Assembly (NCBI RefSeq): GCF_003334305.1
Contig: NZ_QOWS01000015.1
Source: Escherichia coli
GTDB lineage: Bacteria > Pseudomonadota > Gammaproteobacteria > Enterobacterales > Enterobacteriaceae
DNA length: 64,000 nucleotides
Strand: one strand, 5' to 3'
Part shown: positions 42,850 to 43,855 of the stretch, one piece after another
Numbering within the stretch: position 1 is the first letter of the stretch
How the letters are laid out: each line of letters starts with the position of its first letter
Position numbers and translations under genes: made by a program
The notes under the pieces: model-generated
Database searches by the model: none
Told to the model about the DNA's origin: nothing
Seen by the model: only the letters and a program-made list of their open reading frames with translations

Positions 42850-43209
42850 ATGCTGCAAATCCCACAGAATTATATTCATACGCGCTCAACGCCTTTCTGG
42901 AATAAACAAACTGCGCCTGCCGGAATATTCGAACGTCATCTTGATAAAGGAACGCGCCCGGGGGTTTACCCACGCCTTTCCGTTATGCATGGGGCGGTCA
43001 AATATCTCGGCTACGCTGATGAACACAGTGCAGAGCCTGATCAGGTGATCCTTATCGAAGCGGGGCAGTTTGCGGTGTTCCCTCCAGAAAAGTGGCACAA
43101 CATTGAAGCCATGACTGACGATACTTATTTCAACATTGACTTCTTCGTGGCTCCTGAAGTCCTGATGGAAGGTGCGCAACAACGGAAAGTCATTCATAAC
43201 GGGAAATGA
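42850..43209 (+). CDS. yeaR: DUF1971 protein YeaR (nitrosative-stress inducible)
   Basis: 119-aa ORF; synteny. Confidence 0.9.
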   Translation: MLQIPQNYIHTRSTPFWNKQTAPAGIFERHLDKGTRPGVYPRLSVMHGAVKYLGYADEHSAEPDQVILIEAGQFAVFPPEKWHNIEAMTDDTYFNIDFFVAPEVLMEGAQQRKVIHNGK

Positions 43210-43212
43210 ATC

Positions 43213-43401
43213 ATGGGCAAAGCAACGTATACCGTGACCGTCACCAATAACAGCAATGGCGTTTCTGTCGATTATGAAACAGAGACGCCGATGACTTTGC
43301 TGGTGCCAGAAGTGGCGGCTGAAGTGATAAAAGATTTGGTGAATACCGTGCGTTCTTATCCGGTGCGCCGTAAAACCCCGTCCTTCAGGGCGGGGATATA
43401 A
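43213..43401 (+). CDS. yoaG: Small protein YoaG; 3' end appears to run into the IS left end
   Basis: 62-aa ORF starting 4 bp after yeaR; last ~15 codons overlap the predicted IS left-end hairpin. Confidence 0.75.
   Translation: MGKATYTVTVTNNSNGVSVDYETETPMTLLVPEVAAEVIKDLVNTVRSYPVRRKTPSFRAGI
43374..43397 (+). repeat. Predicted IS left-end subterminal imperfect hairpin
   Basis: CCCCGTCCTTCAGGGCGGGG; core 18-mer CGTCCTTCAGGGCGGGGA matches the right-end copy 16/18 in direct orientation. Confidence 0.45.
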
Positions 43402-43416
43402 GGCGCGGTTTTCCAC

Positions 43417-43848
43417 CTAACCAGGTGTTTGCTGTTGTTCAATGTATTGGCGGATGACGGATATTGGCGCACCTCCGCAGCTACTGGCAAAATAGCCAGG
43501 ACTCCACAAAACGCCTTTGTAGTAATACCTGACTGCAATATCTGGTCGATCTCGTCGCAGTAACCTACCCGATACGCCTTTGAGGCTGTTTACCAGACTG
43601 GATATCGCCAGTTTGGGAGGATAGTTAATTAACAAATGGACGTGATCTGGTTCGCCATCCATTTCAACAAGTTCAGCTTCAAAATCAGCACATACATTTG
43701 AAAAGTAAGTGCGTAGTTTTTCTGTCGCGTCATGGTCAAAAATCTGGAGTCGGTATCTGGTGACAAAGACCAGGTGAACATGCATCAGGAAAACACAATG
43801 CCTTCCACGCCGGATATCGGTTTCTTTTTTCACAGACCAAAGTATCAT
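43417..43848 (-). CDS. tnpA: IS200/IS605-family Y1 HUH transposase TnpA
   Basis: 143-aa ORF with HUH motif (PDHVHLLI) and catalytic-Tyr helix (GGAPISVIRQYIEQQ). Confidence 0.85.
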   Translation of the reverse strand: MILWSVKKETDIRRGRHCVFLMHVHLVFVTRYRLQIFDHDATEKLRTYFSNVCADFEAELVEMDGEPDHVHLLINYPPKLAISSLVNSLKGVSGRLLRRDRPDIAVRYYYKGVLWSPGYFASSCGGAPISVIRQYIEQQQTPG

Positions 43849-43855
43849 TTGACCT

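Follow-up and report, generated by a model that had tools for sequence, protein, structure and literature searches.

The closest described systems for the insertion analysed here are the IS609 copy of Escherichia coli K-12, which consists of a tnpA pseudogene and insQ, and two elements from other bacteria, IS608 of Helicobacter pylori and ISDra2 of Deinococcus radiodurans. In structural work on IS608, the TCAA cleavage site at the right end reportedly lies 10 nt from the hairpin, and an AAAG located 5' of the left-end stem is said to pair with the TTAC target. For ISDra2 and IS608, the family traits described are hairpins in subterminal position and integration 3' of a short motif, with no duplication of the target (PMC8612924). 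In ISDra2, the guide RNA of TnpB ends with approximately 16 nt of the right flank, the TAM corresponds to the target motif of the transposon, and TnpB cuts the donor joint that is left after excision (PMC8612924). Among the cleavage sites of the group, TTAT is frequent at the left end and TCAA is the commonest at the right end (PMC9956272).

We show here that, in a stretch of 64,000 nucleotides of E. coli DNA (the window; contig NZ_QOWS01000015.1 of assembly GCF_003334305.1), IS609 is inserted in the last codons of yoaG and has swapped the conserved 11-residue tail for 13 element-encoded residues. All coordinates refer to the window and to its plus strand unless stated otherwise. The first gene of the yeaR-yoaG operon, yeaR (42850-43209), is unaffected by the insertion, as judged from the open reading frame list and the RefSeq annotations of K-12 and of strain A7, which is identical in this region. 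The yeaR stop lies at 43209 and yoaG starts at 43213, directly downstream with a gap of 3 bp. This agrees with the operon context given in the initial annotation, and in CFT073 both genes are among those most strongly induced by NO, approximately 160-fold, with 168-fold for yoaG (PMC5320621). The yoaG open reading frame of the window (43213-43401, TAA stop at 43399-43401) codes for 62 aa, compared with 60 aa in K-12 (PDB 1NEI, DH10B annotation); both lengths had been given correctly in the initial annotation. Residues 1-49 are those of K-12 YoaG and the proteins diverge afterwards: the K-12 protein continues with DTENEHDVCGW, the frame of the window with PVRRKTPSFRAGI. The DNA comparison with K-12, which the initial annotation had proposed alongside that of the proteins, leads to the same point, since identity ends after codon 49 and does not extend to the stop. 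From yeaR to 43359 the window and K-12 DH10B are collinear, and nearly every base is different from 43360 onwards; the native part of yoaG (codons 1-49, 43213-43359) carries two substitutions. Working back base by base from yeaQ (45291-45539), the next host gene in the open reading frame list and the annotations, collinearity is regained at exactly 45108. Compared with the empty site of K-12, the breakpoints lie between 43359 and 43360 and between 45107 and 45108, which gives an insert of 1748 bp (43360-45107) and places yeaQ 1748 bp further from yoaG. The adjacent K-12 positions 2010 and 2011 map to 43359 and 45108 of the window with zero repeated bases, hence there is no target-site duplication.

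The assignment of the single codons follows from these breakpoints. Y49 is native and its codon TAT forms the end of the TTAT target (43356-43359), while codons 50-62 (P50-I62) and the stop (43360-43401) correspond to IS positions 1-42, with the TAA at IS positions 40-42; the same 42 nt begin the element at other loci. The displaced native end of yoaG (codons 50-60 and stop, GAC ACG ... TGG TAA) is intact at 45108-45143, 1748 bp downstream. The exact break and resumption of identity to K-12 rules out a chance resemblance. Because the same left-end DNA borders IS609 at eight unrelated loci and the native 3' end has been displaced, both the C-terminus and the 3' UTR of yoaG are changed, as had been supposed initially. 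The proposal that the end of yoaG is derived from the IS was thus right, but its estimated length of about 15 residues has to be corrected to 13 codons and the stop, beginning at 43360.

The insert is 98.2% identical over the full 1748 bp to the K-12 IS609 copy, which is located between ydcL and ydcO. By the convention of ISfinder, elements with a DNA identity above 95% are the same IS, and some of the copies are labelled 'IS609 family' by RefSeq. Judged by this near-identity of the DNA, the insert is the same IS as IS609, a member of the IS200/IS605 family. The two copies agree in the divergent layout of tnpA and tnpB, in their ends, in the TTAT on the left side and in the terminal TCAA on the right. 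The tnpA gene (43417-43848, minus strand) codes for a Y1 HUH transposase of 143 aa (NCBIfam NF033573, 142.8 bits, cut-off 55). Residues 12-141 of this protein, which has the HVH and Y motifs, align with the solved TnpA structures of IS608 and ISDra2. The tnpB gene (43856-45064) codes for an apparently intact RNA-guided endonuclease of 402 aa (NCBIfam NF040570, 384.8 bits, cut-off 100) that matches ISDra2 TnpB structures with E = 2e-55; the alignment shows the D, E and D residues and a CxxC...CxxC motif. Features that the yoaG insertion has in common with IS608 and ISDra2 are the Y1 HUH TnpA, TnpB, the subterminal hairpins and an insertion site 3' of a short specific sequence, which is not duplicated. 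The target of IS609 is TTAT, whereas theirs is TTAC or TTGAT, and tnpA and tnpB are divergent in IS609, while they overlap and run in one direction in the two other elements.

Both ends of the element carry subterminal imperfect palindromes and not terminal inverted repeats (left 43376-43395, right 45078-45097). At the left end, DNA and RNA folds reveal an imperfect palindrome at 43365-43406 with the core CCCCGTCC TTCA GGGCGGGG, whose G+C-rich arms (43376-43383 and 43388-43395) enclose a TTCA loop 16 nt from the cleavage point. The DNA fold of the 71-nt segment 43350-43420 has an energy of -14.7 kcal/mol (z = -2.2). The initial annotation had placed this hairpin at 43374-43397, within the last codons of yoaG, and the core indeed spans codons 55-61. 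It had also located the tnpA stop at 43417-43419 (TAG, on the plus strand CTA) and counted 15 bp between the stops of yoaG and tnpA, and both values are confirmed, the gap being 43402-43416. An AAAA lies 5' of the left-end stem and could presumably pair with TTAT in the way in which the AAAG of IS608 pairs with TTAC. Alignment of the right ends of 10 copies places a related hairpin, CCTCGTCA TTCA GGGCGTGG at 45078-45097, 10 nt from the end of the IS. The terminal tetranucleotide, TCAA (45104-45107), is the cleavage site according to the right-end comparison and published data (PMC9956272).

Eight other IS609 sites were compared, namely ydcL/ydcO, a TetR-family gene by ytfB (in two genomes), a DUF3251 gene, yedK, yfaY/yfaV, gltX/yfeD and, in ST131, yhgE/hslO. 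At all of them TTAT is found directly 5' of the left end, so that together with yoaG 9/9 independent sites have this target, and GATGTCAA is the right terminus in 7/7 copies taken from the full-length search. The constancy of TTAT and of the right terminus across sites fixes the boundaries and the target specificity. Within the window, we found no second IS609 left end. Matches in ST131 that reach 18 nt to the left of the junction were considered as yoaG flank travelling with the IS, an idea that was rejected by the sequence: the ST131 copy is independent, lies between yhgE and hslO next to TTAT again, and its flank similarity is due to chance. A large deletion has removed internal sequence of tnpA in this copy; its annotated insQ is full length with 1209 nt.

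Taken together, IS609 entered yoaG by 'peel and paste' transposition of a single strand, and the TTAT on whose 3' side it lies overlaps codon 49. Its left end begins with non-coding DNA that is open for 13 codons in the yoaG frame. The frame of yoaG therefore continues into the element and across the left-end hairpin up to the TAA at IS positions 40-42. The encoded product is a 62-aa chimera in which the acidic DTENEHDVCGW has given way to the basic PVRRKTPSFRAGI. At the same time, the native 3' UTR of yoaG has been exchanged for the left end of the IS, with tnpA converging on yoaG. None of the observations speaks against this chimeric structure. The chimera is an ordinary product of transposition; both the element and the kind of effect are known, and there is no new biology in it. 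We assign a probability of roughly 95% to the explanation as a whole, i.e. that insertion of IS609 gave rise to the 62-aa chimera, that the allele is inherited, and that the function of YoaG is most likely lost or altered.

The allele is widespread. With an 80-bp probe and a coverage of at least 80%, the IS609-yoaG junction was detected in 1099/5426 complete E. coli genomes (about 20%), and an equivalent probe detected the empty yoaG site in 4318/5426. Carriers include A7, which is 100% identical in the region, 55989 and O111 strains; the empty site is found in K-12, C43(DE3), HS, a derivative of EcN (Nissle) and O157:H7. The exact 62-aa protein occurs on at least 1000 contigs, where RefSeq names it 'DUF1869 domain-containing protein' without flagging the chimera, and our literature search retrieved no paper that names yoaG together with IS609. 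A YoaG with a foreign C-terminus is present in roughly every fifth complete E. coli genome. In work across strains on the NO- and nitrate-induced yeaR-yoaG operon, as well as in alignments of the YoaG family, the 62-aa form is best regarded as a variant generated by the IS. The 62-aa form as the ancestral one was considered and rejected, since homologues of other genera all have the 60-aa form. Among the homologues examined in other genera, the PVRRKTPSFRAGI tail without the IS is absent.

Several genomes show further variants of the locus. Some carriers have a 64-aa YoaG that starts with MNHGQS... and ends in the chimeric tail (P0125, P0129, P0131, P0134). Judged by their sequence, these forms imply a change of 1 nt near the start, after which translation begins at the ATG that overlaps with the stop of yeaR, and they could represent further decay or sequencing error. 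In CP172819.1 (L012, 748-762), 15 extra T are found exactly between TTAT and GACACGG, the insertion point of IS609, and the encoded YoaG has 65 aa with FFFFF (P0033). This insert could be a footprint or an assembly artefact. CP126294.1 (L011, 1630-1680) encodes a 70-aa YoaG (P0113) in which approximately 39 nt derived from the right end of IS609 are found in frame after V46 and before D50. This form was considered as a natural IS remnant that restores the native tail, which we reject because of an N at the junction; assembly collapse is the most likely origin.

What the new tail means for the protein can be judged from its relatives. The chimera shares with wild-type YoaG (DUF1869; PDB 1NEI) residues 1-49, the position after yeaR and a match to Pfam DUF1869, and differs from it in the lack of DTENEHDVCGW, in its length of 62 instead of 60 aa and in a tail that is basic instead of acidic. 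The Pfam match covers positions 2-59 of K-12 YoaG with 113 bits; in the chimera it is reduced to 2-49 of 59 and 84.8 bits. The tail has been kept in the homologues from Salmonella, Enterobacter, Leclercia, Yokenella, Mixta and others, each of which has a length of 60 aa. An alignment of 47 sequences shows no variation at V57, C58, G59 and W60 and a conservation of at least 90% at D50, T51, E52 and E54. Precisely this C-terminal D-T-E-x-E-x-[DE]-V-C-G-W is missing from the chimera, which has PVRRKTPSFRAGI instead, so that four acidic residues have been exchanged for four basic ones. Since the native tail is near-invariant across Enterobacteriaceae, the chimeric YoaG has probably lost or changed its function. 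The persistence of the allele in about a fifth of the genomes indicates that it is at least tolerated.

It is rather unlikely that the 62-aa reading frame is an annotation artefact with a product that is not made or is rapidly degraded, in which case yoaG would effectively be a pseudogene. Such a dead gene would be in line with the loss of the conserved C-terminus and with the additional lesions near the start in some carriers, where the 64-aa forms imply a 5' frameshift. However, hardly any difference from K-12 is seen in the promoter, yeaR, the ribosome-binding region or codons 1-49, all of which are intact, and most carriers have kept the exact 62-aa frame. We also consider it unlikely that the change is neutral, with the last 11 residues being a dispensable flexible tail, the chimera working as the wild type and the allele merely marking a lineage. 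An AlphaFold2 model of native YoaG, calculated with the 47-sequence alignment, gives residues 52-60 a pLDDT below 50, which is compatible with a tail that is flexible in the monomer, although the model is poor overall (mean 59.7). The stability of the allele in 1099 genomes and a tail sequence that is constant in the cluster variants listed fit a neutral change as well. Against it stands that no other stretch of the 60-aa protein is conserved as uniformly over many genera as the tail, with its invariant VCGW, and that the charge of the tail has shifted from four acidic to four basic residues.

A different possibility is that the insertion acts mainly via transcription. In carriers, yoaG is convergent with tnpA and leads into the left end of the IS, and NO- or nitrate-induced read-through would either stop at the left-end hairpin or run antisense into tnpA, which would tie the expression of the IS609 transposase to nitrosative stress. 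We regard this as improbable. The convergence of the two genes with 15 bp between their stops would allow it, and so would the strength of yoaG induction by NO in CFT073 (168-fold; PMC5320621). The RNA fold of the left end yields a strong stem with an 8-bp G+C core followed by GGUUUUCC, and a consensus scan finds a weak terminator-like site at 43414-43427. On the other hand, the stem is trailed by only 4 U and the same scan does not call the left-end hairpin as a terminator, and the geometry was set by the chance position of TTAT and not by design. Insertion of IS609 with a lost or altered YoaG function is the reading that we prefer.

The insertion also has a consequence for the predicted target of TnpB. 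In accordance with the ISDra2 model, the yoaG copy has an intact TnpB with RuvC-type D/E/D residues and a zinc-finger motif, a candidate signal of an RNA scaffold at the right end, which in Rfam stays below threshold, and a TAM with adjacent target. The Rfam model RAGATH-18 matches 44991-45034 inside the 3' end of tnpB (E = 0.0085), its score of 29.5 bits falling short of the gathering score of 44.9, and this segment is a putative piece of the guide-RNA (omega/reRNA) scaffold. RAGATH-18-derived RNAs guide TnpB-like nucleases, and this RNA-guided endonuclease family is associated with IS607 TnpBs (PMC11061315). Transferred from ISDra2 (PMC8612924), the predicted guide segment would comprise about 16 nt (45108-45123), i.e. 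the beginning of the displaced yoaG end, and the TTAT at 43356-43359 would be the TAM. The empty yoaG allele of K-12 reads TTAT followed directly by GACACGGAAAACGAAC, which is the right flank of the yoaG IS609 copy. The guide RNA of this copy would therefore match the intact yoaG allele, an arrangement of TAM and target that holds by construction for every IS200/IS605 insertion. One may speculate further that TnpB with the displaced-yoaG guide cleaves intact yoaG (TTAT and GACACGGAAAACGAAC) whenever this arises by excision or recombination, a local drive that would help to hold or spread the allele to about 20% of E. coli, and that NO-induced antisense transcription into tnpA couples the element to nitrosative stress in addition. 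We consider this extended scenario very improbable. The occupied and empty yoaG alleles nevertheless form a ready natural pair for tests of IS609 TnpB targeting.

The transposition machinery itself differs between copies. K-12 IS609 has an internal tnpA stop, while the copy in yoaG, apart from its location inside this gene and two substitutions in the right-end hairpin, is distinguished by a tnpA that is open over 143 aa and whose closing TAG is absent at other sites. This TAG is present in the window and in A7; every other IS609 copy that was read, including another copy at the yoaG site (L003), has CAG at the corresponding position (43417-43419 in the window). Without the TAG, the tnpA frame has no stop within the element and runs through the left-end hairpin and out of it, and RefSeq marks the CAG copies as tnpA pseudogenes 'missing C-terminus'. 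An identical 80-mer spanning this TAG occurs in 544 records, thus at most about half of the copies at the yoaG site carry it. Internal tnpA stops are present in three copies (K-12, L006 and L007), and tnpB is full length (402 aa) in 9/10 full-length copies translated. The K-12 copy never transposed in mutation-accumulation lines (PMC5009759). In the alignment of 10 right ends, the hairpin consensus of most other copies is CCACGTCC TTCA GGGCGTGG. Compared with CCACGTCC, the hairpin at the yoaG site has two substitutions in the 5' arm, which are also found in the gltX/yfeD copy of O157:H7. They break two pairs of the stem and create an alternative ATCCTC/GAGGAT pairing, and as judged from the predicted stem these changes may weaken recognition by TnpA.

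The chimeric yoaG is a clean natural example of an IS200/IS605 end that provides a tail and a stop codon. In another genome, the left-end TAA that closes the chimeric yoaG also terminates an interrupted gene for a hypothetical protein (L010, 1-342), which indicates that any gene running into the left end in this frame acquires this tail. Further gene ends coincide with the element at other sites. The stop annotated for ydcO, yedK and yfeD is a TGA complementary to the right-end terminal TCA (L004, L007 and L009 at 2045-2048). Similarly, yfaY ends within the left end of IS609, and yfaV is annotated as beginning within its right end (L008, 1-314 and 2002-2348).
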